The notes below the pieces were generated by a model. The model ran no database searches. It saw nothing but the letters and a program-made list of their open reading frames with translations, and was not told where the DNA came from. Positions 29,094 to 52,815 of a stretch of 64,000 bases of DNA are shown here, piece after piece. Source of the DNA: an uncultured Acidobacteriota bacterium (lineage in GTDB: Bacteria > Acidobacteriota > UBA6911); the NCBI GenBank assembly GCA_963843575.1, contig CAWJKZ010000019.1, positions 384,001 through 448,000 on the forward strand. The letters run 5' to 3'. The translations under genes were made by a program, and so were the position numbers. Every line of letters begins with the position of its first letter. Position 1 is the stretch's first letter.

Positions 29094-29180
29094 CCTCAAT
29101 GAGATGGCGCCAAAACAAGGACGAAAATGCCCCTTATTTCGCGTTTTTGGGGCCATTTTCTGCGATTAAGACCGGTTTGA
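29094..29180 (+). repeat. Family F element (copy 1): degenerate IHF-like site + phased A/T tracts
   Basis: Core CCTTATTTCGCGTTTTTGGGGCCATTTT...GATTAAGACCG shared with 35489, 35601 (reverse), 42531 and 45938. Confidence 0.75.
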
Positions 29181-29189
29181 GTTGAAGGC

Positions 29190-30533
29190 TCAAACCCCGT
29201 TGTCGAGGGCGAAGTAGGGTTTTCGTGTGCTCCACCGGCCCTTGGTGAAGTCGGGGCACTTGACCGGCATGCTCCCCTTGGCGAGCGATTCCTCGGACAG
29301 GGGGATCACGACGCTCATCGTCACCGAGTCGTAGATGTCGATGGGGGTGGGGGTCTTGTGCCGGACCGCTCTGAAGAACTCCTGCAACTCGATGAAGTCC
29401 GGCTCTCCGTGGCCGAACACGCCGCGCGCCTTCCTCTGCTCCGGGTCTCCCAGGCCCTTGTACAGCCTGTGCTCGTACTTCTTCTCGTAAGGCTGCAGAG
29501 GCTCCCAGGTGTGCGCGTCGTTCCCTTTGGGCACGACGCCGTCCATGAAGACCGACCAGCGTTGCTCGTTGTAGAGTCCGCGGGTCCCCTCGATTTCCCA
29601 GCGGTTGTCGTAGGGGCGCGGGGTCTGCATGTCGTTGTTGATGACGATCGTGTTCCCCTTTTTCGTCTTGACGAGCGAGGTGACGATGTCCGACTGCATC
29701 ACCTTTCTCTTGGCCATCGGGTGGTCGGGGCCGAACTTGCGCCGGAAATGGTCGTTGATGCTGACGGAGCGATTGGCCATCGACACCAGGGTGTCGAACG
29801 CATCCCCGCAGTTGATGTCCATCCAGCTCAGCACCGGGCCCAGGCTGTGGGTGGGGTACTGGTCCGCGTTGCGCTTGAGCAGGTAGGCGCCGGTCCAGCG
29901 CGGCTCCCCGTCCTTGTCGAACCACCAGATGTCGGTGCAGTCGTGGGAGTGGGCGCAGTGGCAGTGGATGATTTCGCCGAAGAGCCCGGCGCGGATCATG
30001 TTGAGCACCACCAGGTTCTCCCCGCGGAAGCTCCAGTTCTCGAGCATCATGCAGGGCACCCCAGTCTGCTCCTGGGTGTCGACGAGCTGCCACAGGTCAT
30101 CCATCGTGATGCCGATGGGGACCTCGACCCCGGCGTACTTCCCGGTTTTCATGGCGTGGACCGCCATCGGTGTGTGCCATTCCCAGTAGGTCGCGATGAC
30201 TATCGCGTCCAGATCCTCGCGGTCGATCAGGCGCTTGTAGTCGTGCTCGTCCTTTCCGTAACTCTCCGGCCGCTTCTGGCCGGCCTTCTCCACCATCTCG
30301 ACGGCGTGCTCGAGGTTCGGCTTCTGGATGTCGCAGACGGCGGGAACCTCGATCCCGGGCATGTGGAGCGCGATGTCCAGCAACCCGGATCCCCGATTCC
30401 CCACCCCGACAAAACCGACCCGTATTTTCCGCTCGTTTTGGCCTAAGAGGCCTGTTGGAGCGCCGAATGCGGAAACCATCGCCATTGCGCCACCGGCTTT
30501 CAAAAGGTCACGACGTGTTGTCCCAGGAGCCAT
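29190..30533 (-). CDS. Tat-exported GH109-like NAD+-dependent N-acetylhexosaminidase (Gfo/Idh/MocA fold)
   Basis: TRRDLLK Tat motif, VGVGNRG, IATYWEWH, VEVP, MMLEN, YPTHSLGP, C-terminal PDFTKGRW. Confidence 0.8.
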   Translation of the reverse strand: MAPGTTRRDLLKAGGAMAMVSAFGAPTGLLGQNERKIRVGFVGVGNRGSGLLDIALHMPGIEVPAVCDIQKPNLEHAVEMVEKAGQKRPESYGKDEHDYKRLIDREDLDAIVIATYWEWHTPMAVHAMKTGKYAGVEVPIGITMDDLWQLVDTQEQTGVPCMMLENWSFRGENLVVLNMIRAGLFGEIIHCHCAHSHDCTDIWWFDKDGEPRWTGAYLLKRNADQYPTHSLGPVLSWMDINCGDAFDTLVSMANRSVSINDHFRRKFGPDHPMAKRKVMQSDIVTSLVKTKKGNTIVINNDMQTPRPYDNRWEIEGTRGLYNEQRWSVFMDGVVPKGNDAHTWEPLQPYEKKYEHRLYKGLGDPEQRKARGVFGHGEPDFIELQEFFRAVRHKTPTPIDIYDSVTMSVVIPLSEESLAKGSMPVKCPDFTKGRWSTRKPYFALDNGV

Positions 30534-30648
30534 TCTATCCCTCCGATCTCTGCTGGGAATATACAAATCCCGCCTGACACACGCAACGTCTAGTTATAGA
30601 CTGCCCGGCATGGTTTCCCTGTGCCAAACCCCGAAAGGACGATGCCGC

Positions 30649-32496
30649 ATGCGGACCGCGAAGGTCGGATTCCTTGCATGGTTGACGATGTTGACAATTA
30701 TGGCCGTCGTACCGGCTGCTCCTCTCCCCGCAATGGCGACGGGCGAACGTGCGCTGCCCTATCGCTTCCTGCTGGTGATTTCCGACCAGTGGAACGACCC
30801 GGCCAGCTACCTGGTCGACGGCGGCGGCGAGTTCCAGGTGCTCGTTTCGCTGCTGAAGGCGTGGGGATTGCCGTTCGAGATTCTTCGGCTCGACCAGCAG
30901 AAGTTCGACCGCTATCACCTGCTGGACCGCGAGGGCCAGCCGCGCTACGGCACCATCATCTGGGACGCGGGGCCCGTCGGGTTGGAAGGCAAGGATCTGA
31001 GCCTCCTCCCCGTCCTGGTGAAGGAATTCGGCACCAGCCTCGTCGCCATCGGAGATTCGGTTTCGCTGCCGGAAATATCGGGTCTCGCCGGACTCGGCTA
31101 TGTCAGCGAGTATCGGTTGGGCGACCCGGTGACGTTCGCCGGCGACCACTTCATCACCCGGGGGCTCGCCGGGCGGGAAAAGGACTTCCTGGCCGGCACT
31201 GCGTGGGAAGTCCCCGGGAGCAAGGTGACGGTGGCGGGCGGCTCGGTGTGGGTGCGGCGCGCCCACCTTCCGTTCCTCGCCACGAAGGAGTATCCAGGGG
31301 CCGGGCGTGTCGTCTGGCTGGGAGCTCACCGCGCCACGGCCCAGATCGCAAACCAGCTGGTGCGCGATCTGCTCAAACGGAGCCTGGTGTGGGCGCAGGG
31401 GTACGCCCTTTACCAGGAGCACCAGAAGAGCGCGATGCTCTTCATGGACGACTTCGGCACCTCCGACCGGACCTACCTCCCCTACTGGCACTACCGGACG
31501 CTCAACGAGGGCGACATCCGCAAAGGGCTCATCGATCCCCTGAAGAAGCACAACGCCGTCCTGATGGAGGATGTGCTGACCGGCTACATCGACCGCAAGG
31601 GGAGGCGAATCGCAAACCCGTGGAAGCAGCAGGTGATCGACGAGATCGACGGCAAGACCCTTCACGACTACGTCTCCGCGAAGAGAGGCCTGGACGCGGG
31701 GCTGAAGGAGGGGGTGCTGGAAATCCAGTGCCACGGCTACACGCACATGCTCCCCGACCTGGATTCCCCTCCGGGGCCGTTCTGGACGGCGCCAATGGAC
31801 GGCACCGGGACGCTGGGCTTCGACGAGGAGTTCAGCGACCGCCTGCGCAACAGGGAAGTGCCGGCCATCACACAGCGGTACCTGCTGGAGCGAGGGCTGG
31901 AGTACATCGCGAAGGACTTCGGCGTCACACCGCTGTTTGTCATCAACGGCGGCAGCGGATGGTCCCGCTCCTACCCGAACAACAGCCCCCGGATCTCGGC
32001 GGAGATGGGATTCGGCCTGTCGCATTTCGGGACCCCGGGATATCTCGGCAGGGACATCGTCATTAACGACATGGGTCCCGTCGTCCCCCAGGGCACCTGG
32101 CAGCACGACCGCAAGCCCCCGACGCCGGAGGAGGTCCCGTGGAGCACCGACGGGCCGTACTGGATCATTTTCCACGACCGCGACATCTCTATGGACATCA
32201 CGGCGGCGGAGCGCCTGCTCAGCAGCCTGGGCGCCGGGGTGCGTTACCTCTCCGCCAACGAGTACGCCGCGTATCTCCACACCCGCATCGAAAGCGGGGA
32301 GCAGCCCCTGTCGCTCTCCGTCTATTACGACGAGCACTACTGCCGGTACTTCGGGTCCCACGAGTCGAAGTGGGTCCTGCACGTCTCGGATGAGACGCGC
32401 CGCGACCTGAAGAGTGCCTCACCCGAGAAGCAGACGATCACGATTCCCGCGGGAGTGGGACGGCACATCGTGCGGCTGGGGCCGCCCACGCCGTAG
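30649..32496 (+). CDS. Secreted protein with polysaccharide deacetylase (NodB/CE4-like) motifs
   Basis: Signal peptide; LFMDDFG and EIQCHGYTH metal-binding motifs, IIFHD; N-terminal half not recognised. Confidence 0.55.
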   Translation: MRTAKVGFLAWLTMLTIMAVVPAAPLPAMATGERALPYRFLLVISDQWNDPASYLVDGGGEFQVLVSLLKAWGLPFEILRLDQQKFDRYHLLDREGQPRYGTIIWDAGPVGLEGKDLSLLPVLVKEFGTSLVAIGDSVSLPEISGLAGLGYVSEYRLGDPVTFAGDHFITRGLAGREKDFLAGTAWEVPGSKVTVAGGSVWVRRAHLPFLATKEYPGAGRVVWLGAHRATAQIANQLVRDLLKRSLVWAQGYALYQEHQKSAMLFMDDFGTSDRTYLPYWHYRTLNEGDIRKGLIDPLKKHNAVLMEDVLTGYIDRKGRRIANPWKQQVIDEIDGKTLHDYVSAKRGLDAGLKEGVLEIQCHGYTHMLPDLDSPPGPFWTAPMDGTGTLGFDEEFSDRLRNREVPAITQRYLLERGLEYIAKDFGVTPLFVINGGSGWSRSYPNNSPRISAEMGFGLSHFGTPGYLGRDIVINDMGPVVPQGTWQHDRKPPTPEEVPWSTDGPYWIIFHDRDISMDITAAERLLSSLGAGVRYLSANEYAAYLHTRIESGEQPLSLSVYYDEHYCRYFGSHESKWVLHVSDETRRDLKSASPEKQTITIPAGVGRHIVRLGPPTP

Positions 32497-32508
32497 CCTC
32501 AATCACCC

Positions 32509-32591
32509 CAGGTGGGTCCGGGCTTCAGCCCGGACGTCTTTGCTATGTAGCGACCGCAAACAGCGTCCGGGCTGCAGCCCGGACCCACTTG
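32509..32591. repeat. Family A REPIN
   Basis: Copy 32512-32535 and inverted copy 32565-32588. Confidence 0.9.
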
Positions 32592-32674
32592 GGGTCCCGG
32601 ACGGAATGACTGCAGGGGTGGGAGCGGATCGTTGTCAGCGGGCGGGGGCGGGCCGCCGCGGCCTACTGGCTCAG

Positions 32675-33265
32675 CTACGGCACGATGCCGCGCAGCCGGG
32701 AGGCGACGTCCACATCGGCGCGCTCCTCGGGCGAGGCTTCGAACAGAGGACGTCGGTGCAGCCCGGCCATCGGGACCAGCAACTGGTCGGGAAACTGCTC
32801 CATCCGGACGTTGTTGATGTTGACGGCGTCGTTGTAGAACTCCCGGCGGTGGGCGATCTGTTCCTCCAGCCCGGTGATGCGCTGCTGCAGCTGGAGGAAT
32901 TGGGTGCTGGACTTGAGATCGGGATAGTTCTCGGCTATCGCGAGCAGGCGGCCCATGCCGGCGCCGAGCTCGCGCTCCGCCTGGAGGCGGGCTTCGTCCG
33001 AAGCCCCGCGGGCAACCTGCGACCGCAGCGAGGTCAGACGCGTCAGGAGATCCCGCTCATAGCCGAGGTATGCCTTTACCGCGTCCAGGAGCTTGCCAAG
33101 CTCGTCGGCCCGCTGCTTGAGCAGAACGTCGACGTTTGACCAGGCCTGGTCGACGTTGTTTTTCACCTGCACGAGGCTGTTGTAAAGAGTTACGGCGTAG
33201 GCGAATATCCCCACCACGACGAGCAGGACGACAAACGCGAAAACGATCGCGATGACACCGAGCAT
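32675..33265 (-). CDS. lemA: LemA family protein
   Basis: N-terminal TM, YNSLV...AWSNVDVLLKQRAD, AENYPDLKS, RREFYNDAV, EQFP. Confidence 0.92.
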   Translation of the reverse strand: MLGVIAIVFAFVVLLVVVGIFAYAVTLYNSLVQVKNNVDQAWSNVDVLLKQRADELGKLLDAVKAYLGYERDLLTRLTSLRSQVARGASDEARLQAERELGAGMGRLLAIAENYPDLKSSTQFLQLQQRITGLEEQIAHRREFYNDAVNINNVRMEQFPDQLLVPMAGLHRRPLFEASPEERADVDVASRLRGIVP

Positions 33266-33295
33266 AACCGTTCACCTCTCCGGGGCTTCGTTCGT

Positions 33296-34684
33296 TCAGT
33301 TGAGAATCGCGTCCAGGGCATAGTAGAGGGCTCCGGCCATGAGCCCCGCGCCCACCATGAGGAAAATCCACATTCGGCGGTGGAGAGACTTGATCGTGTC
33401 GTGCTCCGTCCGGTCGGCGATGATGAACGGACGCCCCTGATCGCCCTTCCACACCAGGACGCGCTGGGGATCGAGGGCGGGCGGCGACGAGGCGCGGCCA
33501 CGGACTTCCTTACGGACCTGCCGCTTGAGCATGGCCCAGGCGAGCGCCGGGACGGCCGAGAGAGAGCCCGGCCGCGACATCGGGACGGGACGCTCGGTAG
33601 GCGAGGCCGGTCCCCCCGAGGGCACTCCGGCGGCAGCCTGGACGCGCCAGCTCTCCGCCAGCGTCCCCATCACGTACAGGGGCCCGCCCTCCTCCAACCG
33701 CCTTTCCGTCAAGTGCATGTGGTTTGAGTCGGACCTGGGCGGCCACCCTTTCCCGACCGACGCGAGCAGCGCCTGGGCCTGCGCGGGGACCTCCGCCTCG
33801 TGGTTGCTGCGCCAGCGCTGCGTTTGCAGGATCACCTCGGCCCCTTGACACCAGACCAGAACGCGTCCCGTCTCGTCCTCGAGTTCCACCGTGTCGAGCG
33901 GGGCGGATTCCCGCTTGAAGTGCGTCTGCCAGTGCCCCTTCCCGTCGCCCCCCTTAACCCACTGCCTGATCTCCGCCTGCCAGTAGACGCACGGCGTTCC
34001 CGAAATCGGGGACAACGACGGGTGCGCTCCCCGGGCCCGGCCCGAGAGCTCCGACAATCCGATCGCGGCGGAGTTCGCCTTGGCCGTCGGCGTGCCCGAC
34101 ACGGCGAGACGATTCCGGTATTCCATGAACCCACGGCGGAACAGCCAGGCGCCGCCGGCGAAGGCGTACAGGCAAACCATGTACTCGTTCAACAACAGGG
34201 CCATCAGGAACGCGCCCGCCAGCAGGGCGAGCAACAGGCAGACCAATACCCCCGCGATCAAAGCGAACACGAGCAGGGTGCGGCGGGCGCCGCCGGTGCC
34301 AAGCCGCCCGGGAACCTTGGCGTACGGCATCGCCTCACCCGCCCACCGCGGCCCGAGGAATGAGCGGACGTCCGCGACCAGGGCGTCGCGGGGAATACCG
34401 ACGGGAAGCGGGATGCTTACTTCCTTGTTCGGCCCGCCATTTTCGCGGTAGGCCATGACCAGCATCTCGCGCCGGCGCATCTGCGCGGCTATCTTCCCCG
34501 GGAAGGCTGCGCTGGCAGCGGACAGGTCGAGGACGGCGGTGCCGGCCCTGGTGACCGATGACCACGGGATCTGCAACGCCTGGTTCACGGGAGGGCCGGC
34601 TTCGTAGTCCATGCCGCCATGTTCGACCGCCAGGGTAATCCTGGTGGAACCCAACGGTGTGCTCTCTTCGTACTGTAGCCTCAT
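33296..34684 (-). CDS. Membrane protein with GIDE (E3 ubiquitin ligase-associated)-like domain, LemA-associated
   Basis: TM segments then TPTAK..SAAIGLSELSG, SPISGTPCVYW, LEDETGRVLV, ERRLEEGGPLYVMG, PFII, C-terminal TM. Confidence 0.65.
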   Translation of the reverse strand: MRLQYEESTPLGSTRITLAVEHGGMDYEAGPPVNQALQIPWSSVTRAGTAVLDLSAASAAFPGKIAAQMRRREMLVMAYRENGGPNKEVSIPLPVGIPRDALVADVRSFLGPRWAGEAMPYAKVPGRLGTGGARRTLLVFALIAGVLVCLLLALLAGAFLMALLLNEYMVCLYAFAGGAWLFRRGFMEYRNRLAVSGTPTAKANSAAIGLSELSGRARGAHPSLSPISGTPCVYWQAEIRQWVKGGDGKGHWQTHFKRESAPLDTVELEDETGRVLVWCQGAEVILQTQRWRSNHEAEVPAQAQALLASVGKGWPPRSDSNHMHLTERRLEEGGPLYVMGTLAESWRVQAAAGVPSGGPASPTERPVPMSRPGSLSAVPALAWAMLKRQVRKEVRGRASSPPALDPQRVLVWKGDQGRPFIIADRTEHDTIKSLHRRMWIFLMVGAGLMAGALYYALDAILN

Positions 34685-34741
34685 CGATTCAGCCGCAGGA
34701 AAGGCTCTGGTTGTCCAGAGGATGGATGTGCCGTTTCTTCG

Positions 34742-35344
34742 CTACTGTCGCTTCGCCGTGATCTCCATCATCTTCACTTCCCGCCCGGATGGGTCCTTGA
34801 CGAACATCTCGTTCCTGAAGCTGTTCTCGTCCAGCCAGCTGATGACCGATCGCATGCCGATTTTCTGTCCGCTCACGGGATCCCAGACGTCCCCGGTGAA
34901 AGTGCAGGTCTTCTGGCCGGCGTCGCAGGTTCCCGTCTGGTGCATGATGCCGGTGCCCATGTTGTCCACCCAGGAGCTGACGTACTGCTTCGCGACATTG
35001 TCGTAGCCGTCGGTGCCTCGCCCCTCGAAGGGCATCCCCATCATGTCTCCCTTCCAGGTGTGCTCGACATAGCGCCCTCCCATGAGGAGTTCTGCGTGCA
35101 TGGTGCCCGAGGACTCCGCCGGGGGCTGTGCGGGATCCATCCACGCCTTGTTGACGAAGGTCCAATTGCCAACCATGCGCGCGAGCGCCTTGTGCTGCTC
35201 GCCTGGGCTCATCGCTTTCATCATGGCTTCCATCTGTTCGGGCGGCATGGCCGGAGCCGCCTTCTCCTTGGTCTTGTCTTGTGCAACTAAAGTTATCCCG
35301 AACAGAAGCAGACACAGAACCACCATACGTTTTTGGATTTTCAT
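34742..35344 (-). CDS. DUF1579-family exported protein
   Basis: PGEQHKALARMVGNW, PFEGRGTDGYDNVAKQYVSSWVDNMGT. Confidence 0.8.
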   Translation of the reverse strand: MKIQKRMVVLCLLLFGITLVAQDKTKEKAAPAMPPEQMEAMMKAMSPGEQHKALARMVGNWTFVNKAWMDPAQPPAESSGTMHAELLMGGRYVEHTWKGDMMGMPFEGRGTDGYDNVAKQYVSSWVDNMGTGIMHQTGTCDAGQKTCTFTGDVWDPVSGQKIGMRSVISWLDENSFRNEMFVKDPSGREVKMMEITAKRQ

Positions 35345-35450
35345 TTTTTCCCCCTCCGTCGAAATGCGGGACACCCGAGCAACAATGGCAAAACCGTAGC
35401 ACCCCCCCGCCCACTCGTCAAGTGGGGACGGACCCGGGTAAATTTTTTAA

Positions 35451-35650
35451 ATGGAGGATGATGCGGCCAAAACACCGTCGAAAGGGCGCCTTATTTGCGT
35501 TTTTGGGACCGGTTTTTTGAAAATAAGCCGATGCCGGATGACCGGATTTCCGGCCCTCATCCGCTATTTGGCAAAAACGGGGCGAAAAATCTCAAATAAG
35601 GGCTATTTTTAAGGTAAAATTCGGCATAACCTGCTGATTCGTAATAGTTA
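35451..35650. repeat. Family F elements (copies 2 and 3) in inverted orientation
   Basis: Core at 35489 (+) and 35601 (-); IHF-consensus AATCAGCAGGTTA on the minus strand at 35639-35627. Confidence 0.75.
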
Positions 35651-35652
35651 AT

Positions 35653-35865
35653 CTAGGTCCGTCCCTGATTGCGGTTTTTCCAGGATCCGAGCAGCAGCGT
35701 GAGGAGCGCGAGTCCGATTTCATCGGCGAAGGGGATGAAGTCCGGGACCACCAAGTCGACCAGCGTGACGACCGCCAGCAGGATGAACAACCCTGGGAAT
35801 CTCAGATTGAGCCGCCCGAGGAGCCGGCCGGCGAGGGAGGTGCGCTGCACCTGATCAAGAGGCAT
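35653..35865 (-). CDS. Small membrane protein (DUF6116-like)
   Basis: LRFPGLF...DLVVPDFIPFADEIGLALLTLLLGSWK. Confidence 0.65.
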   Translation of the reverse strand: MPLDQVQRTSLAGRLLGRLNLRFPGLFILLAVVTLVDLVVPDFIPFADEIGLALLTLLLGSWKNRNQGRT

Positions 35866-35973
35866 GCCCAACTCCCGCAAGGTGGAATCCCCCGAGGAGA
35901 GGGGCCTGTCGAAGGTCGTTTCGTGCGCGGCTCCCAGCAGGCTCCCCCGATCGGGTTTGCAGCGATCGCCGCT

Positions 35974-36570
35974 TCACTGCTTGGCGGCCGCCGGCGCCTG
36001 CATTCCGAGCGCCTCCATAATCCCGACTGCCTTTTCCTTAACCGACTGTGCCTTGGCGACGGCGTCGGTGAGGTTTCCCGCACCGTATGCCGTGGTGGCG
36101 TCAGTCCAGCTTTGGGTGAGCGTCGCGAGGCTGGCTTTCGCCTCCTCAAACTTCGCCTTGTCGATGTTGGCGGGGAGCCTCCTGGATTTCGAGAGGATCC
36201 CCATTCGGCTCTGGATGGCTTCGACCATGCCGGGCAACCCGCCGCTGAGGTCGCCCCAGCTCTTCATGAGCTCGTCCTTCTTGGCTGTCGCCGCGGCGGC
36301 CAGATCCTTGATTGCGGCCGGCAATCCCTGCGCGGCGGTGAGAGCCGCCTGGTAATCGCCCTTCTTGAAATTGTCCCTGGCGTTCTGGAGCGAAGTTTCA
36401 ATGGAAGCGAGTTGATCCGGCACGAACTTGGCCGCCTCGGGGCGAGCCGCGTTCAGCGCGTCTTCCGCCGCCTTGATGGCCGCTTCCGCCGGTGCTTTGG
36501 CTGTGTTGCAGCCGACGACGGCCAGCGACAGGGCAAGTACCAGCCCTGTTACAAGCGCGAATCTTGACAT
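35974..36570 (-). CDS. Alanine-rich helical lipoprotein, function unknown
   Basis: Signal peptide with lipobox LAVVG-C; RBS GGAG. Confidence 0.75.
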   Translation of the reverse strand: MSRFALVTGLVLALSLAVVGCNTAKAPAEAAIKAAEDALNAARPEAAKFVPDQLASIETSLQNARDNFKKGDYQAALTAAQGLPAAIKDLAAAATAKKDELMKSWGDLSGGLPGMVEAIQSRMGILSKSRRLPANIDKAKFEEAKASLATLTQSWTDATTAYGAGNLTDAVAKAQSVKEKAVGIMEALGMQAPAAAKQ

Positions 36571-36683
36571 GACTTTTCTCCCGTTCGGTGCCTCCAGCTA
36601 AATCCGCAATCCGCTGCCGGTCGGAAGCACGGCCTTCAGGCCTGGATTTTCCGGCCGCGATCCAACTACCGCTGCCCGGATCC

Positions 36684-36875: not shown

Positions 36876-36961
36876 GATCGCTCCTTTGTGGTGTCGGTAT
36901 GCGCGAGTATAGACACAATCCGATCGGGTGGGGTCACATTTTCTCGATCGGAAGTCCCCAA

Positions 36962-37064: not shown

Positions 37065-37070
37065 CAATTC

Positions 37071-38757: not shown

Positions 38758-38824
38758 GGCGTCCTCCCTTGTCTCGTGCGTGATCGTAATCCGAGGGGGC
38801 CCGCAGCGCAAGCCGTCAGAACCC

Positions 38825-38866
38825 ACCTCGAAGTCTCGAACGACTCGAAGAGTCTCGAAGGTCTCA
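38825..38866. repeat. Family D tandem CTCGAAG-type repeats
   Basis: cacctcgaagtctcgaacgactcgaagagtctcgaaggtctca. Confidence 0.7.
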
Positions 38867-39127
38867 GTGCAGGAGGGCGATCGAGCTGGTGAAGGCCACG
38901 GCCAGATAGAATGTGCCGAGGCCCAGGGCGAGGGCCGTCTCCAGCCACTCGGGCCAGAGTGTCAAGGGAGGGCGCCGGGGCTGCTGTTCGCGCCGTTGCG
39001 CGGCGAGGGCGGCCAGGCAGCGGGCGCGGGTGCGCTCGACCCTTCGCGGATCGGCGTCGTGCGTGCGCAACACGCCAAGAACTTCCTCCAACCTATCCCA
39101 AGGTTCCCGCATGGTCATCCCCCTCAT
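38864..39127 (-). CDS. Small membrane protein, putative anti-sigma factor
   Basis: Start overlaps the sigma stop (ATGA); basic helical N-part and a C-terminal TM (WLETALALGLGTFYLAVAF). Confidence 0.55.
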   Translation of the reverse strand: MRGMTMREPWDRLEEVLGVLRTHDADPRRVERTRARCLAALAAQRREQQPRRPPLTLWPEWLETALALGLGTFYLAVAFTSSIALLH

Positions 39128-39696
39128 CCCGCTTTCGCCTGCATCGTCGCCGCCTCCGCGTCCATTTCGAGCGCCAGCCTGCGGCGCGCCCGCTCGAGCC
39201 GCTTGCGCACGGCCTCGGGTTCCAGGCCGAGCGAGGCGGCTGCCTCGGAGGGCGTCAACCCCGCGGTCCCGACCAGCAACAGCACTTCGCGGTCGTGCAG
39301 CGACAGGCGGGCGAGCGCGGCTTCCAGGCGCCGCTCGGTCTCGGTGCGCGCGGCTGCTTCGAACGGGGATTCGCCGGGGGCCGCGGGCCAGGCGGGCGTC
39401 AGTTCCGAGAGCCGCTCGGCATCGACGGCCCGGTGGCGGCACCAGCTCGCGTGCAGGTTGCGGGCCACGGTAAAAAGCCACGCCCCCAAAGACGTGTCGT
39501 CGGAGAGGTTCTTCGCGCAAGCCACCAGCCGCAGCCACGTCTCCTCGAGCAGGTCCTCGGCAACGTCGCGGCGGCGGCTGAGGCGCACGAGAAAACTGAA
39601 CAGGCGCGGACGGAACGCGGCGTACGCCGCCTCAAACGCGGCGTCGTCGCCGGCCTTGAGGCCGGCCACAACCCGCAGCTCGATTTCCCGTTCCAT
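39124..39696 (-). CDS. ECF RNA polymerase sigma factor
   Basis: Region 2 (GDDAAFEAAY...AEDLLEETWLR...AWLFTVARN) and region 4 (DREVLLL...EAAASLGL...VRKRLERAR). Confidence 0.9.
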   Translation of the reverse strand: MEREIELRVVAGLKAGDDAAFEAAYAAFRPRLFSFLVRLSRRRDVAEDLLEETWLRLVACAKNLSDDTSLGAWLFTVARNLHASWCRHRAVDAERLSELTPAWPAAPGESPFEAAARTETERRLEAALARLSLHDREVLLLVGTAGLTPSEAAASLGLEPEAVRKRLERARRRLALEMDAEAATMQAKAG

Positions 39697-39705
39697 AACC
39701 TTTAC

Positions 39706-39760
39706 AACGCGCGAGTCCGGCGAGCGTGACCCCCGGTCACGCTGCGGCGCGGCGCGCGTT
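39706..39760. promoter_or_regulatory. Back-to-back divergent ECF-type promoters GGTCAC-N16-CGTT
   Basis: Plus strand: GGTCAC 39735-39740, CGTT 39757-39760. Minus strand: GGTCAC 39731-39726, CGTT 39709-39706. Both read GGTCACGCT-N10-GCGCGTT. Confidence 0.75.
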
Positions 39761-39793
39761 TCCATTGTCGACAATAATACAAAGGAGGCTCAC

Positions 39794-40138
39794 ATGCCCG
39801 GACCATTCTTCTGGTTTGTCGTGTTGGTCGGCCTCGCCACCCTGGCGGCGGCCGTCTATTTCGCATTCCGTCCCTCGGAGCGAACACTGGCGGTGCTCCG
39901 GCCGCTGGGCGCCGCCACGACCTATTCGTCGCTGGCGGCCTTCCTGCTCGGGGTGGCCAACGGCCTGACCGGTCTCAACCGCAGCCTCGAGCGCGCCGCC
40001 GACCCCGCGGCCTCGGCCCAGGCCTGGCGCACGTTCATTTCCGGACTGGCCGAGTCGCCGGCGCCCCTTGTCCTGGCCTTTGCGATCCTGGCCGTCACGT
40101 GGCTGCTCGTCGCCGTGGGATTGCGCCGGCAGGCTTGA
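39794..40138 (+). CDS. Small 3-TM membrane protein (114 aa), weakly MotA/TolQ/ExbB-like
   Basis: RBS AAAGGAGG, MPGPFFWFVVLVG..., three hydrophobic segments. Confidence 0.7.
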   Translation: MPGPFFWFVVLVGLATLAAAVYFAFRPSERTLAVLRPLGAATTYSSLAAFLLGVANGLTGLNRSLERAADPAASAQAWRTFISGLAESPAPLVLAFAILAVTWLLVAVGLRRQA

Positions 40139-40143
40139 GCACG

Positions 40144-40230
40144 CATGTGGGCCGCGGCGGCTCGACGCGGCCCACATGCTTCCGTCGTTGTTGGTCATTC
40201 GCAGGGCGGGGGCGGGCCGCCCCCGCCCAC
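40144..40230. repeat. Family E REP-like inverted pair (GTGG + GC-rich hairpin)
   Basis: gtgggccgcggcggctcgacgcggcccac and gggcgggggcgggccgcccccgcccac; the latter recurs at 37076-37101 and as a variant at 32638-32667. Confidence 0.7.
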
Positions 40231-40234
40231 GCTC

Positions 40235-40262
40235 TTGACAGCTTCGACGCCGGGGCTAGAAT
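40235..40262 (+). promoter_or_regulatory. sigma70 promoter for the SPFH/Zn-ribbon operon
   Basis: TTGACA-N16-TAGAAT. Confidence 0.7.
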
Positions 40263-40300
40263 GAGCAGGCATCCACCTGCGACCCAGAGAGGAGAAGGGC

Positions 40301-41377
40301 ATGGGAATCTTCGACTTCATCAAAGGCGAACTGATCGACATCATCGAGTGGACCGACGACTCGCGCGACACCCTCTCGTACCGCTTCCCGGACGAAGACA
40401 AGGCCATCAAGAACGGCGCTCAGCTGATCGTGCGCGAATCCCAGATCGTGCAGTTCCTGTACCTGGGAGAGTTCGGCGACACCTTCGGGCCCGGCAAACA
40501 CACGCTGACGACCGACAACATCCCGGTCCTCACCCGCCTGAAGTCGTGGAAGTACGGTTTCGAGTCCCCCTTCAAGGCGGATGTCTACTACATCAGCACC
40601 CGCCTGTTCACGGGCAACAAGTGGGGGACGGCGAATCCGATCATGATGCGAGACGAAGACTTCGGCATCGTGCGCGCCCGCGCCTTCGGGACCTTCGATT
40701 TCAAAATCGTCGACCCGAAGCTGTTCCTCAAAGAGGTGGCCGGGTCGGACCAGAATTTCCGCCTCGACGAGTTCGCCGACACAATGAGGTCGCGCATCGT
40801 CAGCGTGTTCAGCGACGCGCTGGCCTCCGCGCGGATCCCGGTGCTCGATGTGGCCAGCCGGTACACCGAGCTGGGGGAGGCGCTCCTGCCGCTCATCAAC
40901 CCGGTCGTGAACGCGAAGTACGGCCTCCACATCAGCAGCTTCATCGTCGAGAACGTCTCGGTGCCGCCCGAAGTCGAGCAGGCGATCGACAAGCGTTCGA
41001 GCATGGCCGCCGTCGGCAACCTGAACGACTTCGTGAAATACCAGATGGGCAAAGGGATGGAGACCGGAGGAGGCGGCGGTGCGGCCGGGACGGCCAGCGA
41101 GCTGGCCGTCGGCTTTGCCATAGCCCAGCAGCTCATGCAGCAGACGCCTATCCTCGGGACGCCTCAGCCTGCGGGCGCGGGCGCGGCCGCCGCGGCGCCG
41201 GCGGCGCCGGCTGCCCCGGCGGTCGAACTGCTCGCCCCCGCCGACGTGGCGAAGATCCTGAACGTGCCCGAGGGCGACGTGATGGCCCTGATCCAATCCG
41301 GCGAGCTCAAGGCCAAGAAGATCGGCTCCAGCTTCCGCATCGCGCGCGCCGCGCTGGACGCCTATCTTGCCTCCTGA
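40301..41377 (+). CDS. SPFH/band-7 (YdjI-like) protein with C-terminal excisionase-like HTH
   Basis: IDIIEWTD, IKNGAQLIVRESQ, FESPFKADVYY, KWGTANPI; C-terminus LLAPADVAKILNV...IQSGELKAKKIGSSFRI. Confidence 0.85.
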   Translation: MGIFDFIKGELIDIIEWTDDSRDTLSYRFPDEDKAIKNGAQLIVRESQIVQFLYLGEFGDTFGPGKHTLTTDNIPVLTRLKSWKYGFESPFKADVYYISTRLFTGNKWGTANPIMMRDEDFGIVRARAFGTFDFKIVDPKLFLKEVAGSDQNFRLDEFADTMRSRIVSVFSDALASARIPVLDVASRYTELGEALLPLINPVVNAKYGLHISSFIVENVSVPPEVEQAIDKRSSMAAVGNLNDFVKYQMGKGMETGGGGGAAGTASELAVGFAIAQQLMQQTPILGTPQPAGAGAAAAAPAAPAAPAVELLAPADVAKILNVPEGDVMALIQSGELKAKKIGSSFRIARAALDAYLAS

Positions 41378-41393
41378 AGCCCCGAAACCGCAC

Positions 41394-42488
41394 ATGGGCG
41401 AAATCTCCGCACTGGAAAAACACCCGTGCCCCGCCTGCGGCGCCCAGGCGGAGTGGAGCGCCGGTAAGCAGCGGCTCGTGTGCTCGTTCTGCGGCACCGA
41501 AAGCCCGTTCGAGGTCGACCGCAGCACCGGCGTGATCCAGGAAATCGACCTCGTCAAGACCCTGCGCGAGCTCCCCGAGGAGCTGCGCGGCTGGCAGGAG
41601 GAGCGTCGCAGCGTCCAGTGCCGGAGCTGCAAGGCCGTCATGGTGTTCGACCCGAAGCGGGTCGGGCAGAACTGCGAGTTCTGCGGCGCGCCCGCCCTGG
41701 TCGACTACAACGAGGTGAAGGCGCCCATCCGCCCGCAGAGCCTCCTCCCGTTCCGGGTGAGCCAGGCCCAGGTGCGCGAGAGCATCCGGAGCTGGTATGC
41801 GGGGAAGTGGTTCGCCCCCGGCGCACTCAAGCGGCGGGCGCTCGTCGACACCGTCCACGGCGTCTACGTGCCCTACTGGACATTCGACGCGAAGGTCCGC
41901 TGCCCCTGGGAAGCCGAGGCCGGCCACTATTACTACGTGACCGAGGAATTCCGCGATCAGCAGGGACGGACCCAGCTGCGGCAGGTCCAGCGCGTCCGCT
42001 GGGAGGCCGCGGCCGGCGAGATCGAGCACTTTTTCGACGACGAGCCGGTCCCCGGAACCCAGGGAATCGACGCCGGGCTCCTGAAGTCCATCGAGCCGTT
42101 CCCGACCGCGGAACTCGTCCCCTACGACACGGCCTACCTGTCGGGGTTCGTGGTGGAACACTACCAGGTCGTTCTGCTCGACGCGGCCAAGAGGTCGCAG
42201 GATTCCATGCACGGGCAGCTGATGGAGTTGTGCGCGGCACAGGTTCCCGGCGACACCCACCGCAACCTGCGGATCCGCCCGCAGTATTCCGGCCAGACCT
42301 TCAAGCACATCCTGGTCCCCGTGTGGCTCCTGACCTACACCTTCGGGTCGAAGGTCTACCAGGTGCTCGTCAACGGCTACACCGGGAAAATGGCCGGCGC
42401 CTACCCCAAGAGCGTCTGGAAAATCCTTGCGGCCGTCGCCGTGATCCTGATCGCCCTGGCCCTCTTCCTCTTCTGGGGACGGACCTAA
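41394..42488 (+). CDS. Zinc-ribbon membrane protein (YdjG-like)
   Basis: Four CxxC motifs (CPAC, CSFC, CRSC, CEFC), GVYVPYWTFD, LVPVW...VNGYTGKMAG, C-terminal TM. Confidence 0.8.
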   Translation: MGEISALEKHPCPACGAQAEWSAGKQRLVCSFCGTESPFEVDRSTGVIQEIDLVKTLRELPEELRGWQEERRSVQCRSCKAVMVFDPKRVGQNCEFCGAPALVDYNEVKAPIRPQSLLPFRVSQAQVRESIRSWYAGKWFAPGALKRRALVDTVHGVYVPYWTFDAKVRCPWEAEAGHYYYVTEEFRDQQGRTQLRQVQRVRWEAAAGEIEHFFDDEPVPGTQGIDAGLLKSIEPFPTAELVPYDTAYLSGFVVEHYQVVLLDAAKRSQDSMHGQLMELCAAQVPGDTHRNLRIRPQYSGQTFKHILVPVWLLTYTFGSKVYQVLVNGYTGKMAGAYPKSVWKILAAVAVILIALALFLFWGRT

Positions 42489-42492
42489 TTCC

Positions 42493-42618
42493 TATTAGTA
42501 ATTTGCGGGAGTTTTCGCCTCAAAATGGCGCCTTATTTTGCGTTTTGAGGGCCGTTTTTTGAGATTAAGGCCGATTACCACCTCACCTCGAAGCCTCGAA
42601 GGACTCGAAGGGTCTCAA
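42493..42618 (+). repeat. Family F element (copy 4) followed by family D tandem repeats
   Basis: TATTAGTAATTTG 38 bp before CCTTATTTTGCGTTTTGAGGGCCGTTTTTTGAGATTAAGGCCGAT; then cctcgaagcctcgaaggactcgaagggtctcaaag. Confidence 0.75.
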
Positions 42619-45600
42619 AGATTTAAAATGCTCAGCAGGGCGGCGGGGGTGTCGTTGTCGAGGACTGCCTCTACCGAGAGGGCGACCCCGAAATCGCGTT
42701 CGATGCGCGTGATCAATCGGATGGCGGAGACGGAATCCCCACCCAACTCAAAGAAGCTCTCGTCCATGCCGACGCCGGGGGCCTCGAGCACCTCCTGGAA
42801 CAGCGCCGTTATGCGCGTTTCCAGGGGAGTGCGGGGGGCCCTTGCCTGGCGCCGCTCTTGCCGGACCGGGTAGGCGGCCAGCGCCGGACGATCGATCTTG
42901 CCGTTGGGGTTAAGTGGCAACGACGCGAGCCGAACGACGCTCCCGGGGATCATGTAGTCGGGTAGGGTCCTGCGCAGCGCGGGTTTGGGATCAGCGTCCT
43001 CGTGCCCGGGTTGGGGCACCCAGAACGCGACAACATCCCTGCCGCGCCCGCCGCTTTGCAGCACGACGGCGCCGTGCCTGACCCCCGGAACGGACAGTAA
43101 CGCCGCTTCTATCTCGCCCAGTTCGACGCGGTAGCCGTGGATCGTCACCTGGCTGTCGGCCCGCCCGAGGCAGACGAGGTTGCCGTTCGGCAGAAAAAAG
43201 CCGCGATCGCCGGTGCGGTACAGGCGGGCGCCGGACTGGCCGAACGGGTCGGGCACAAATCTATCGGCGGTCAGTTCGGTGCGGTTGACGTAGCCGTCGG
43301 CTAGGCACGGGCCGCCGACCACGATCTCGCCGGTCATCCCGATCGGGACCAGGCGCAGGCTGTCGTCCACGATATAGATGACCGCGTTGCTGGCCGGCCG
43401 TCCGATAGGAACGTGCGGCGTGGGCGCCAGGCCGGCCGGGATGTCGTAGAAGCTGACTATCGAAGACGTCTCGGTGCAGCCGTAAACATTGATCAGCCGT
43501 TCGGGTTTGCCCCGCTGCAGCACGCGGGATACCGCATCGGGGTCGGCCTTCTCGCCCCCGAAGCACACGCAACGGACGCCGCCGAACATGTCGGGGCACT
43601 CCTGCGCGGCCAGGTTGAACAGCGAGGTGGTCAGAAACGCGAGGCTCACCCCGTACCTTTCGTACGCCCTCCTGCACTCGAGCGGTCGCACGGCGGTCTC
43701 CTGGGGCAGGATGGCGAGGGTGGCGCCGGAGGCGAGCGCGATCCACACTTCGAAGATGGCGATGGCGAACCCGATGTTGGAAAAGTGGGAGACAACGTCC
43801 TCCGCGGAAGGTGCCAGGAAGTTGGCGTTGGAGGCCAGCCGCAGGATGCTGCGGTGGGGCAGAAGCACGCCTTTCGGCTTGCCGCTCGACCCCGACGTGT
43901 AGAGGATCAGCGCCGGGTCGTCCAGCGAGACCTCGCGGGCAGGGTTCTTCTCCTGTGTGCCGGCCGATGCCGTCCAATCGCCCACCAGGAGGGTCGACGA
44001 GCGTGTCCGCGGCAGTTTGTCCAGCCACTCCCTTTCGGTGAGGACAAACTCGGCGCCACTGTCCTCGAGCATGAACGCGATCCGCTCGGCCGGATAATCG
44101 GCCGGGATCGGGACATAGACGCCTCCGGTCTTGAGCACGCCCAGGACCGCCCGGAGATAAGCCGGGGAGTGTTTCAAGAGGAGCGCAATGCGGCTTCCGC
44201 GGCCGGCGCCGGCCGACCCGAGGCGACGGGCCAGCCCGTTGGCCTGCTCGTTCAGCGCCGAGTAGCTGATGCGCTCATTTGCCCAGAGTATGGCGGGGTG
44301 CTCGGGCTGCCTCGCGGCATGCCGTTCGAAAAGGAGATCGACGGAGGCGGCGGGGAGCGGGGCACCCGTGTCGTTCCACCGGTTGAGGATGAGATCGGCT
44401 TCGGCGGCCGTTATCGAGCGTTGCCGTTCTTCCACGGGCCGACGGCTTCCCGCCGCGCCTTGGGAGAGCGCCCTGCGGTCCACCTTGTTGCTGGGGGTGA
44501 GCGGGAACGAAGGCAATTCCTCGTACCACGAAGGGATTGCGTGCGTCGGCAGCCTGGCGGCGAGAAAACCACGGAGTTCCGAAGCGGAAAGGGGCTGATC
44601 CCCGGCAACGAGACAGGCGGTCAGGGTGGGCGATCCGCCGGCCCCTGGCCGGGCCACGACGACTGCGTCGCGCACCCCGGGGTGCTGTTTTAACGCCGCC
44701 TCGACTTCCCCCGGCTCGATGCGGAAGCCGCGTATCTTCAGCTGCAGATCGGCCCTCCCGAGGAACTCCACCTGCCCATCGGCCCGGCAGCGCCCCAGGT
44801 CTCCCGACCGATACATCCGCTGCCCAGGGTTGAAAGGGTCCGCATAAAAGCGTTCGGCAGTCAGCTGCGGCTCGTTGAGGTAGCCGCGGGCTACGCCGAC
44901 GCCCGATAGGCATATTTCGCCGATCGCGCCGGGTGCGACGGCGGCGCCGTCCTCGTCGAGGATGTAGGAGCGGGTGTTATCAACGGGCCGGCCAATTGGG
45001 ATGGGTCCGTCCGTATCCTCAACCAGGCACCCGTGCGAATAGATGCTTGCTTCGGTGGGGCCATACCAGTTCCAGAGGCGGCGGCAGCGCCGCTGCAGTG
45101 CCGAAGCCAGCGCGGGCGACAACACGTCGCCGCCGCTGATGATCTGGAGCTCAGCGTCGCCCTGCCAGCCGGCGTCCACCAGCATGCTCCAGGTTGCGGG
45201 AGTTGCCTGAATGACGGTAGGCCGGGCGGCTGCGAAAGTATCGCCCAGCCGCCGGGGATCGCGGGCGCTCCTCGAGTCGACGATCACGACCCGCCCGCCG
45301 TAACACAGGGGGAGCAGGAGTTCCAGGGTAGCGATGTCGAACGACAGCGTGGAGAGGGCCGGCATCACGTCCCGGCTGGAAAACCCGAGCGTTCGGCCGG
45401 CCCAGGCCAGGACGTTGGAGACCCCTGCGCGCGTGACCTCCACCCCCTTCGGGTTGCCCGTGGAGCCGGACGTGTAGAGTAGGTACATCAGGGAATCCGG
45501 GTCCGCCGCGGACCCGCAAGGCTCGGCGCTTTGTTCTTCCAGCGCCAGAGACTCGAACGTGAACACCCGCGCGTTTCCGGCCGGTATCGCTTCGACGAGC

Positions 45601-45950
45601 GACTCCTGGGTCAGGAGGAATTGCGCCGCGGAATCGCGCAGCATGAACCGCAGCCGCTCGGCCGGATAGCCGGTGTTGAGCGGCAGGTACGCACCCCCGG
45701 CCTTGAGGATGCCTATCATGCTGATCAACATGGGCAACCCGCGCTCCATGCAGATCGCGACGAACCGATCGGGCCCCACCCCCTGCTTTTGCAGAAACCG
45801 CGCCAGCCGGTTCGAACAAGCCTCCAGCTCCCCATAGCTGATGGACTCCCCCCCGCACACCGCCGCAACACTGGGGACGGACCAGGGCAACTGGTGATCA
45901 ATCAGCAAGTTATGGAATTTATTGCCCGAAAAAGGGGCCTTATTTCGCAT
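42615..45950 (-). CDS. NRPS-like protein: two tandem adenylation domains + one carrier (A-A-T), no C or TE domain; true start uncertain (possibly ~45908)
   Basis: A1: YTSGSTGNPKG, YGPTE, YRSGD, NKVDR. A2: YTSGSSGKPKG, YRTGD, GKIDR. PCP: FFELGGDS. Confidence 0.9.
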   Translation of the reverse strand: MRNKAPFSGNKFHNLLIDHQLPWSVPSVAAVCGGESISYGELEACSNRLARFLQKQGVGPDRFVAICMERGLPMLISMIGILKAGGAYLPLNTGYPAERLRFMLRDSAAQFLLTQESLVEAIPAGNARVFTFESLALEEQSAEPCGSAADPDSLMYLLYTSGSTGNPKGVEVTRAGVSNVLAWAGRTLGFSSRDVMPALSTLSFDIATLELLLPLCYGGRVVIVDSRSARDPRRLGDTFAAARPTVIQATPATWSMLVDAGWQGDAELQIISGGDVLSPALASALQRRCRRLWNWYGPTEASIYSHGCLVEDTDGPIPIGRPVDNTRSYILDEDGAAVAPGAIGEICLSGVGVARGYLNEPQLTAERFYADPFNPGQRMYRSGDLGRCRADGQVEFLGRADLQLKIRGFRIEPGEVEAALKQHPGVRDAVVVARPGAGGSPTLTACLVAGDQPLSASELRGFLAARLPTHAIPSWYEELPSFPLTPSNKVDRRALSQGAAGSRRPVEERQRSITAAEADLILNRWNDTGAPLPAASVDLLFERHAARQPEHPAILWANERISYSALNEQANGLARRLGSAGAGRGSRIALLLKHSPAYLRAVLGVLKTGGVYVPIPADYPAERIAFMLEDSGAEFVLTEREWLDKLPRTRSSTLLVGDWTASAGTQEKNPAREVSLDDPALILYTSGSSGKPKGVLLPHRSILRLASNANFLAPSAEDVVSHFSNIGFAIAIFEVWIALASGATLAILPQETAVRPLECRRAYERYGVSLAFLTTSLFNLAAQECPDMFGGVRCVCFGGEKADPDAVSRVLQRGKPERLINVYGCTETSSIVSFYDIPAGLAPTPHVPIGRPASNAVIYIVDDSLRLVPIGMTGEIVVGGPCLADGYVNRTELTADRFVPDPFGQSGARLYRTGDRGFFLPNGNLVCLGRADSQVTIHGYRVELGEIEAALLSVPGVRHGAVVLQSGGRGRDVVAFWVPQPGHEDADPKPALRRTLPDYMIPGSVVRLASLPLNPNGKIDRPALAAYPVRQERRQARAPRTPLETRITALFQEVLEAPGVGMDESFFELGGDSVSAIRLITRIERDFGVALSVEAVLDNDTPAALLSILNL

Positions 45951-45990
45951 TTTTGCTGCCGTTTTTCTCGACTAAGCACCGATTTGCCGG
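45900..45990 (+). repeat. Family F element (copy 5)
   Basis: IHF consensus AATCAGCAAGTTA at 45900-45912; core CCTTATTT at 45938. Confidence 0.75.
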
Positions 45991-52813: not shown

Positions 52814-52815
52814 AA

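Follow-up and report, generated by a model that had tools for sequence, protein, structure and literature searches.

The window, that is, the whole 64-kb stretch of DNA analysed here (from an uncultured Acidobacteriota bacterium), carries five copies of a non-coding repeat, family F, of ~110 bp per full unit, all among ordinary genes (Table 1). A preliminary description had placed these copies at 29094, 35451, 35540-35650 (inverted), 42493, and 45900. All five are found there, but the outer boundaries have to be moved, each copy running ~27 bp further out to a terminal 10-mer, GGGACGGACC. Copies B and C form the inverted pair of that description, and copies D and E do flank, as direct repeats, the NRPS-like gene with its AMP-binding and PP-binding domains.

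Table 1. Family F copies in the window and associated features
Feature	Position	Strand	Remarks
Copy A	29067-29178	+	nhmmer E 2.6e-23
Copy B	35424-35530	+	left arm of tail-to-tail pair; nhmmer E 9.5e-23
B/C spacer	35531-35553	none	GC-rich, non-conserved
Copy C	35554-35665	-	right arm of tail-to-tail pair; nhmmer E 1.3e-21
Copy D	42475-42574	+	9-bp deletion in outer half; nhmmer E 4.4e-19
NRPS-like gene	42615-45950	-	carries two AMP-binding domains plus a PP-binding domain; lies outside the repeat, as a neighbour
Copy E	45873-45982	+	nhmmer E 3.9e-24

The outer ends lie very close to genes. In copy A, the first G of the terminal GGGGACGGACC (29067-29077) is shared with the TAG stop of the upstream gene on the + strand, and the unit occupies a convergent intergenic gap up to the stop of a GH109-like gene at 29190. 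The outer end of copy B is 10 nt from the GTG of a DUF1579 gene (34742-35414, - strand). In copy C, GGGACGGACC (35665-35656) is followed directly by the TAG stop (35655-35653) of a DUF6116 gene on the - strand; in copy D, it is followed directly by TAA (42486-42488), where the upstream gene on the + strand stops, with the convergent AMP-binding gene ending at 42615. The outer end of copy E faces the start of the AMP-binding/PP-binding gene (- strand; ATG at 45835 or at 45950). By eye, the spacer between B and C belongs to a local palindrome, CGGATGA..CCGG..TCATCCG.

An nhmmer profile of the family, a search proposed in the preliminary description, detects no sixth copy in the 64-kb window (the next-best matches there have E > 6) but does find copies elsewhere. 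Beyond the window, one genome per species was searched and pattern matches were then scored with nhmmer, which gives 10 more copies at seven loci, all within a single Acidobacteriota MAG (CAVZBT01). At the other four of the 11 scan loci (in Pelotomaculum, Treponema, Sedimentibacter, and an uncultured bacterium), the pattern matched by chance, nhmmer E being at least 1 (~8 expected). The family statistics cover 15 copies (five in the window and 10 in the MAG) at 11 loci in two genomes.

The outer terminus GGGACGGACC is asymmetric and identical in 15/15 copies. It occurs exactly eight times in the window, at the five element termini and three times within coding sequence, there without any other feature of the family. 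Inward from the terminus, AA is conserved across the family at positions 18-19, and the other base-specific block, CCTTATTT-N4-TTTT, is reached after 65±1 bp. The distance from terminus to CTTAT is 65 bp in nine copies, 64 in three, 66 in two, and 56 in one (copy D). The core CCTTATTT-N0-3-GC-N1-3-TTTT, given in the preliminary description as common to the copies, is present in four of those in the window (copy C has GAGA instead of GC) and in none of 100 dinucleotide shuffles.

Between the two blocks, ~30-42 bp in from the terminus, is a candidate IHF-like site, CAR-N4-TTR, which in the 15-copy alignment is intact in eight copies, has one mismatch in four, and is poor in three. The longer IHF-like 13-mer WATCARNNNNTTR is exact at 45900-45912 (+) in copy E and at 35627-35639 (-) in copy C; the window contains four exact occurrences, against 0.55 expected, a number reached by 0/100 shuffles. 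The match reported previously stands at 45900 and 35639, both exact and at an offset of 38 bp from the core, and at 42493 with one mismatch, but the full consensus is exact in only two of the five copies (by eye, there are three mismatches at 29094 and four at 35451).

Outside the terminal block, pairwise identity among the 15 copies is 37-65%. Since no pair exceeds 65%, there is no sign of recent copying. In several alignment columns, only the W or S class is conserved and not the identity of the base, and the fourth T-tract is replaced by an A-tract (TTTT to AAAA) in 3/15 copies.

In 15/15 copies, the strongest A/T period in the 6-16 bp range is found at 10.25-11.25 bp, and the helical phasing of A/T tracts noted in the preliminary description proves highly significant. 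Summed over the 15 copies, the A/T periodic power reaches 152.6; shuffles average 42.2 and attain 66.5 at most (0/1000 get to 152.6). Among all 98-bp stretches of the 64 kb, the five window copies take ranks 1-5 for A/T periodicity, and again ranks 1-5 for the phased AA/TT vector sum, a parameter-free stand-in for a wedge-model curvature calculation. Each unit alternates between A/T-rich and G/C-rich DNA in ~9 patches, repeating every ~10.6 bp in one coherent phase. Periodicity is present in the outer half and in the inner half taken separately (observed sum reached by 0/500 shuffles), and the phases of the two halves agree within 52 degrees in 14/15 copies; copy D has lost 9 bp, nearly one helical turn, and its phase moves by just ~60 degrees. 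Predicted from sequence, the unit is intrinsically curved or wrapped DNA, with A/T tracts ~10.5 bp apart over several turns. The invariant 10-base end, together with the helically phased A/T patches, suggests a docking site for a DNA-bending or DNA-wrapping protein. A spacing kept within ±1 bp at ~50% divergence, the conservation of base class, and the phasing fit selection on DNA geometry; the preliminary description had already proposed selection on DNA shape, from bases that vary while the phase is constant, and the W/S columns, the exchange of a T-tract for an A-tract, and the ±1-bp spacing agree with it. The resident copies appear to be under purifying selection, in which case the site would still be in use.

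Tail-to-tail inverted pairs of 231-253 bp occur at four of the 11 loci (B/C and three in the MAG), and the remaining loci have solo copies. In the three MAG pairs, the spacer sequences are unrelated. At most loci, the copies are in convergent or tandem intergenic gaps, at gene 3' ends, and in 8/15 units the outer end touches or runs into the stop codon of a gene in the same orientation. By eye, five units are 10-50 nt from a divergent gene start, and one MAG unit (L002a) is within a divergent promoter region. Orientation relative to the neighbouring genes is mixed (in the window, only C is on the - strand), and the neighbours at the 11 loci are unrelated ordinary genes. Neither the window nor the 2-kb flanks at the seven MAG loci encode a transposase, integrase, or recombinase, and no Y1 gene, whether of the RAYT or of the TIRYT type, is present there. 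The terminal GGGACGGACC, the block CCTTATTT-N4-TTTT, the recurrent tail-to-tail pairing, and the outer end flush with stop codons are absent from the preliminary description.

The position of 8/15 units directly after stop codons, and of five units 10-50 nt from divergent starts, so that the promoters of those genes would fall in or beyond the element, could point to a cis-regulatory or RNA-level module (a terminator, a promoter with UP-like curved DNA, a small RNA, or a leader peptide). By eye, short ORFs with a FAFLGP-like stretch can also be read in A and B. Such a module is nevertheless very improbable, given the mixed orientation relative to neighbouring genes and the lack of conserved structure. 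Rfam 15 gives no match in the window at the gathering score, and E-value scans of 35300-35800 and 28900-46300 return only unrelated sub-threshold matches (the mir-1889 match overlapping copy C, at 15.6 bits against a gathering score of 80 and with E 1.6, is spurious); family F is absent from Rfam, in agreement with its proposal as an undescribed element. RNAalifold on the 15 copies finds only two invariant pairs, both trivial, and no conserved fold, and single-sequence folds of both strands give no z-score below -1.22. A structured RNA was rejected on these scans and folds, and a sequence-specific RNA would not tolerate the replacement of TTTT by AAAA in 3/15 copies. A consensus scan of 28500-46500 gives no sigma-70-like promoter in any copy, and sigma-54 and ECF motifs, checked by eye, are inconsistent. 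The sole terminator-like match touching a copy (35545-35528, - strand) is weak, with five pairs (three G-C), and its hairpin has no counterpart in the other copies. As for a small peptide, 1-nt indels interrupt the FAFLGP-like stretch of A and B, which the other copies lack or have out of frame, and an aligned start codon exists in only 8/15 copies. There are 1-nt indels between CCTTATTT and the T-tract across copies, and by eye the upstream genes read the 10-mer in two or more frames, with ..GRT* for C and D and ..GDGP.. for the MAG units L010a and L011b; judged by these indels and frames, family F is non-coding.

We give a probability of about 45% to family F being a dispersed DNA-level site on which a sequence-specific protein assembles, with an arm that is bent or wrapped and the architecture of a transposon end or an att arm. 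We infer the mechanism (recognition by protein, bend, and fold-back) from the layout. The cognate protein would recognise the 10-mer GGGACGGACC; a bend of the IHF/HU type, together with the intrinsically curved DNA, would fold the arm back and bring the subterminal T-tract repeats into contact with the same complex. A terminal site, an IHF-like bend, and phased subterminal sites would be arranged as in a transposon end or att arm. An enzyme using this site, possibly a domesticated one, would account for the dispersal to unrelated intergenic loci in both orientations, for the tail-to-tail pairs with outward termini, and for the outer end flush against genes. In its favour are the constraint on geometry, the dispersal, the flush outer ends, the negative results for RNA and for coding, and a published lead, the terminal repeats of TIRYT transposases treated below. 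Against it stand the lack of a transposase, integrase, or recombinase gene in the window and MAG flanks, of a target-site duplication, of recent copying, and of a conserved hairpin, as well as the mostly inexact IHF consensus and the imperfect agreement with the TIRYT motif. It is doubtful that one can go further, to a previously undescribed lineage-specific DNA-protein particle in which a dedicated recombinase or domesticated transposase, with IHF/HU, wraps ~110 bp at gene boundaries and uses the 10-mer as crossover or anchor. If it were so, the blocks between copies (for instance the AMP-binding gene between D and E, or the 6.6 kb from A to C) could be swapped or inverted as cassettes, or would form topological units insulated from one another, and the system would be a large-cassette counterpart of integron attC or REP/RAYT, based on DNA shape and not on hairpins.

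Two other explanations remain at the level of DNA. The site could be purely architectural or topological, the W/S phasing positioning a DNA-wrapping protein (gyrase or a nucleoid-associated protein) between genes and the 10-mer anchoring a host factor, with no recombination; this is possible, if rather unlikely. BIME-2 and the strong gyrase site of Mu are gyrase sites of this kind. The top ranks of the five copies for phasing, a conservation that is partly one of base class, and the placement of most loci in convergent or tandem gaps at gene 3' ends are in its favour. The E. coli gyrase motif (excerpts of PMC6379681) is also ~130 bp, with arms of 47 bp periodic in G/C and A/T, and BIME-2 repeats are transcription-independent gyrase sites; as in family F, an alternation of A/T and G/C every ~10.5 bp over ~100-130 bp is read as DNA on a protein surface. 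That motif is, however, degenerate, without an invariant block, and symmetric around a central cleavage site, whereas family F is polar, with two base-specific blocks, an invariant 10-mer at one end, and a one-sided periodic arm. The architectural explanation also leaves unexplained the dispersal to non-orthologous loci, the exclusively tail-to-tail pairing, and the position of L002a in a divergent promoter region. A selfish element in decay, functionless today and surviving as fossil MITEs or as the solo terminal repeats of a transposon that is extinct or absent, would agree with several features: the copies are intergenic, few, and without recent duplicates, they occur in both orientations and in inverted pairs whose termini point outward, and they supply stop codons to genes. 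Such decay is nonetheless improbable: neutral decay to ~50% identity should touch the 10-mer, yet 150/150 terminal positions are intact, and indels are expected, yet the spacing is kept within ±1 in 14/15 copies. The sole larger deletion removes nearly one helical turn, with little effect on phase, and the poorly conserved outer half is still periodic.

Interspersed repeats of bacteria are mostly REP hairpins or MITEs with short TIRs. Family F is an asymmetric, shape-encoded unit in which base identity drifts to ~50% while the end motif, the 65-bp spacing, and the 10.6-bp phase are fixed; such constancy amid drift is, at the level of sequence, the signature of a protein-DNA machine. With the 10-mer, the second block, and the predicted bend site, there is something concrete to use in looking for the partner protein, in a phylum that has been little studied. 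If the copies are recombination or topological boundaries, they would bear on genome shuffling or gene insulation in Acidobacteriota; if they are relics, they would still be a clean natural case of selection on DNA geometry.

Among mobile elements, family F does not conform to a MITE: the 15-copy alignment shows no terminal inverted repeat within single units, the four inverted pairs have no target-site duplication at any boundary offset tried by eye, the pair centres are unrelated, and identity is only 37-65%. Correia elements combine TIRs of 26 bp with a TA duplication, an IHF site at the centre, and copies that are highly similar. Like these and the NEMIS MITEs of Neisseria, family F is a small intergenic repeat with an IHF site (functional in Correia, predicted here), often abutting genes and able to supply gene ends, but it has none of those four features. 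A composite transposon from A to C is excluded, as the cargo consists of ordinary genes and the flanks do not match. Integron attC sites are imperfect palindromes with complementary R''/R' core sites (RYYYAAC/GTTRRRY) in co-oriented arrays; in family F, there is no conserved pairing between unit ends and orientations are mixed. Comparable layouts are those of the IS10/Tn10 outside end, with its IHF site at bp 30-42, and of lambda attL (core, H', P'1-3) or attR. There, a terminal or core site at the junction with unique DNA is followed by an IHF site ~30-42 bp in and by phased protein contacts past the bend, an order that family F would share through its 10-mer, candidate IHF site, and putative subterminal contacts; its inverted pairs with outward termini are transposon-like. 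Family F differs in that no cognate transposase or integrase, target duplication, or terminal sequence similarity is seen, and in that its copies have diverged much further from one another than the two ends of an active element do. In distant mode, blastn gives no match among plasmids (copy E as query) or phages (B/C pair as query), BLAST being blind to relatives at ~50% identity.

Y1 enzymes normally act on hairpins, and family F differs from such systems in having no conserved hairpin. The TIRYT transposases (Y1/HUH, HTH-bearing, and RAYT-like) are well represented in Acidobacteria, and the inverted repeats that flank them share GGGG[AT][CG]A[CG] and form small to moderately abundant dispersed families of singles, dimers, and clusters (excerpts of PMC3733652 and PMC6006769). 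Family F resembles them in phylum and in its dispersed singles and dimers, and its terminal GGGGACGG matches their motif at 7/8 positions; position 7 differs, the first G is present in only 9/15 copies, and the families are compared here by terminal motif and published description only. The papers in which GGGACGGACC occurs do not, judged from their titles and abstract openings, deal with microbial repeats.

REPs and REPINs have an imperfect palindrome of 20-40 bp with a 5' GT[AG]G or CGTC foot. Family F is not of this type, with no conserved palindrome, no fold z-score below -1.22, and no GTAG-type foot at the terminus. The REP/BIME repeats of enterobacteria, including the IHF-containing RIB/RIP (BIME-1), are likewise extragenic and dispersed, mostly at gene 3' ends or between co-oriented genes; they occur as long-lived families of singles or inverted dimers with variable linkers and are linked to IHF and DNA topology (in part from excerpts of PMC3733652). 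The differences are the lack in family F of the 20-40-bp palindrome and of a GT[AG]G or CGTC foot, and a unit that is ~110 bp long, asymmetric, helically phased, and of low copy number. The window also holds a separate, classical family of REP-like hairpins.

The dispersed intergenic repeat Family F is a genuine, statistically robust family. The five stretches assigned to it in the preliminary description are all found and align with one another; their positions stand, but the units, read outward, are longer than was stated there. The core thought common to the five is present in four, and copy C departs from it at GC. As CCTTATTT-N0-3-GC-N1-3-TTTT, this core occurs four times in the window vs. 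zero times in 100 dinucleotide shuffles. All five copies open with GGGACGGACC, mostly as GGGGACGGACC, 54 nt ahead of CCTTATTT (45 nt in D). There are eight exact occurrences of this 10-mer in the window, five at Family F termini and three within coding sequence with no other Family F feature. With the family profile (nhmmer), from which the unit coordinates are taken, no sixth copy is found in the window (next matches at E > 6).

Window coordinates of the Family F copies and of the GH20-like pseudogene ending at copy A
Feature	Coordinates	Strand	Remark
Copy A	29067-29178	+	family profile
Copy B	35424-35530	+	family profile
Copy C	35665-35554	-	family profile
Copy D	42475-42574	+	family profile
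Copy E	45873-45982	+	family profile
GH20-like pseudogene	27993-29067		
GH20b N-terminal piece	27993-28640		
C-terminal piece	28585-29067		other frame than the N-terminal piece

The pattern GGGACGGACC-N35-65-CCTTATTT-N2-5-TTTT matches 11 loci in the species-representative genome collection scanned, none of them in the window's source genome. Seven belong to one Acidobacteriota MAG and are true members (nhmmer E 3e-24 to 4e-19); they also carry features outside the query, namely AA at 18-19, CAR-N4-TT near 31-41, AAAA near 61-64, and a fourth A/T tract. At three MAG loci there is a second, inverted copy, overlooked by the exact pattern; the further copies for which a profile search had been proposed thus number 10 in this MAG, and the family totals 15. 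The other four loci (Pelotomaculum, Treponema, Sedimentibacter, and one uncultured bacterium) match the pattern alone and are not members by nhmmer, consistent with an estimate of ~8 chance matches. Two unrelated, AT-rich genomes repeat the 11-mer GGGGACGGACC locally: a Treponema MAG has it in tandem hairpin-like units (scan locus L005, 1825-2046), and a Sedimentibacter MAG forms a perfect 11-bp inverted repeat with it (L008, 2031-2077). This recurrence is probably due to chance among GC-rich hairpins of AT-rich DNA.

Outside the terminal block, pairwise identity among the 15 copies is 37-65%, and the window copies are as distant from one another as from those of the MAG. GGGACGGACC is invariant in 15/15 copies, CC-TTAT-T plus the next TTTT is almost invariant, and CTTAT is 65 bp away from the terminus in nine copies, 64 in three, 66 in two, and 56 in one. 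Many other alignment columns keep only the class (A/T or G/C), and AAAA replaces one T-tract in three copies. The bases between tracts vary, as had been proposed, yet the A/T tracts recur every ~10-11 bp in all 15 copies, with the strongest period of the A/T indicator at 10.25-11.25 bp. The observed power is reached, per copy, by 0-53 of 1000 shuffles and, summed over copies, is 152.6 vs. a shuffle maximum of 66.5. In an unbiased sliding scan of the 64 kb in 98-bp windows, the top five places go to the five copies, both for A/T periodicity and for the phased AA/TT vector sum. (Rank 6 among AA/TT-phased stretches is an inverted repeat at 63433-63551, whose 35-nt arms are 94% complementary and separated by 49 nt; it lies between a GH95 gene and an aldo/keto-reductase gene.) The outer half of the element, poorly conserved, is still periodic (0/500 shuffles), and in 14/15 copies its phase differs from that of the inner half by at most 52 degrees; the 9-bp deletion in D moves the phase by ~60 degrees only. 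The IHF-like site holds in part: the full consensus has four exact matches in the window (0.55 expected), two of them within copies, but the CAR-N4-TTR core, read by eye in the alignment, is whole in only 8/15 copies.

The flanking genes are ordinary and unrelated to one another, in the window (GH109-like oxidoreductase, DUF1579, DUF6116, AMP-binding/PP-binding gene) as in the MAG (amidase, OPT transporter, GH20, radical-SAM/SPASM protein, 2-hydroxyacid dehydrogenase). Pfam finds no domain of a transposase, integrase, or recombinase in 68 distinct ORF translations (78 scanned, of which 10 repeat an ORF or overlap one already covered; 50 ORFs come from the window and 15 from MAG flanks). The block between C and D contains an ECF-type sigma factor gene (39124-39789, -) and a gene (40265-41377, +) whose product joins SPFH/Band-7 to an HTH_17 (excisionase-like) domain. 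The gaps holding copies are convergent, tandem, or divergent, and often filled by the copy. The setting of the outer end is assigned in 13/15 units: in eight (A, C, D, and the MAG units L004a, L007a, L010a, L011a, and L011b) it adjoins or overlaps a co-oriented gene's stop codon, and in five it faces a close divergent gene start. Pairs occur at 4/11 Family F loci, all tail-to-tail with termini outward, over 231-253 bp, with unrelated spacers and no target duplication at any of the four.

The gene ending at copy A is a GH20-like pseudogene without its catalytic domain. Its C-terminal piece has 30% identity to the MAG GH20 whose 3′ neighbor is copy L011a, and in both the homology ends 0-3 codons from the element; these may reflect an ancient common junction or just the family habit of a gene-flush position. 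At least five other GH20 paralogues are present in the window, part in tandem (16950-21125). A motif that contains a direct repeat, ATCCGCGTG..GCGTC.ATCCGCGTCC, occurs at 1463-1496, 10826-10859, 27935-27968, and 46186-46219, shortly upstream of GH20-family genes in three of the four cases, which makes it a candidate operator of a hexosaminidase regulon; two such stretches (27910-27967 and 46161-46218, 79% alike) enclose the entire Family F cluster.

A regulatory or RNA module is very improbable, all tests being negative. No Rfam family matches the window at gathering, and the one sub-threshold match touching any copy, mir-1889 over C (15.6 bits vs. 80 for gathering), is spurious. Single-sequence folds on both strands do not exceed shuffles (z-scores +0.8 to -1.2), and folding the 15 copies together yields two invariant pairs without covariation. 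Short ORFs in A and B are broken in frame by 1-nt indels between copies; the 10-mer is translated in differing frames in upstream genes, or follows their stop codon, so its conservation is not coding. Across 28500-46500 there is no promoter-like match within any copy, and the only terminator-like hairpin touching one (weak, with five pairs, 35545-35528) is absent elsewhere in the family.

The data fit a putative site of protein assembly at the DNA level: the two base-specific blocks lie about six helical turns from each other, a presumed bend site sits in the interval, and the DNA would be curved, or easy to wrap, in a single phase. Such a build of specific blocks, bend, and phased arm is shared by transposon ends and att arms. 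That a recombination enzyme put the copies where they are is suggested by their dispersal, by inverted pairs that face outward, and by junctions flush with genes; an unaltered 10-mer, constant spacing, and a phase kept at ~50% identity suggest that resident copies are still under selection. A dead MITE family is unlikely, being poorly compatible with 150/150 terminal bases intact. A site that serves topology or NAP wrapping alone is a somewhat better, still doubtful, alternative: a parallel exists in the gyrase motif (PMC6379681), but that motif is symmetric and degenerate. For an assembly site used in recombination, PMC3733652 and PMC6006769 offer a possible lead in TIRYT, HTH-bearing Y1 transposases flanked by inverted repeats and well represented in Acidobacteria, whose repeats form small dispersed families with dimers and a common GGGG[AT][CG]A[CG]. 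Family F GGGGACGG agrees with it at 7/8 positions.

Family F is apparently new to description and best filed among bacterial interspersed intergenic repeats, as a variant not seen before. By blastn, copy E has no relative among plasmids and the B/C pair none among phages, and of the five papers printing the 10-mer none is, by title and abstract opening, on a microbial repeat. A separate, classical REP-like family is present at 14522-14691, 32499-32595, 55775-55876, and 57825-58039, with the hairpin GTCCGGGC-TTCA-GCCCGGAC and a GTGG foot ahead. It occurs mainly in inverted, REPIN-like doublets (e.g., 14577-14609/14662-14694, 100% complementary), and the genome may therefore hold a RAYT. A third, small family, with the GC hairpin GCGGCGCC-N3-GGCGCCGC (TGGAGTGCGGCGCC...), is present at 4758-5068 and 52702-52827, two loci far apart, in direct as well as inverted copies.
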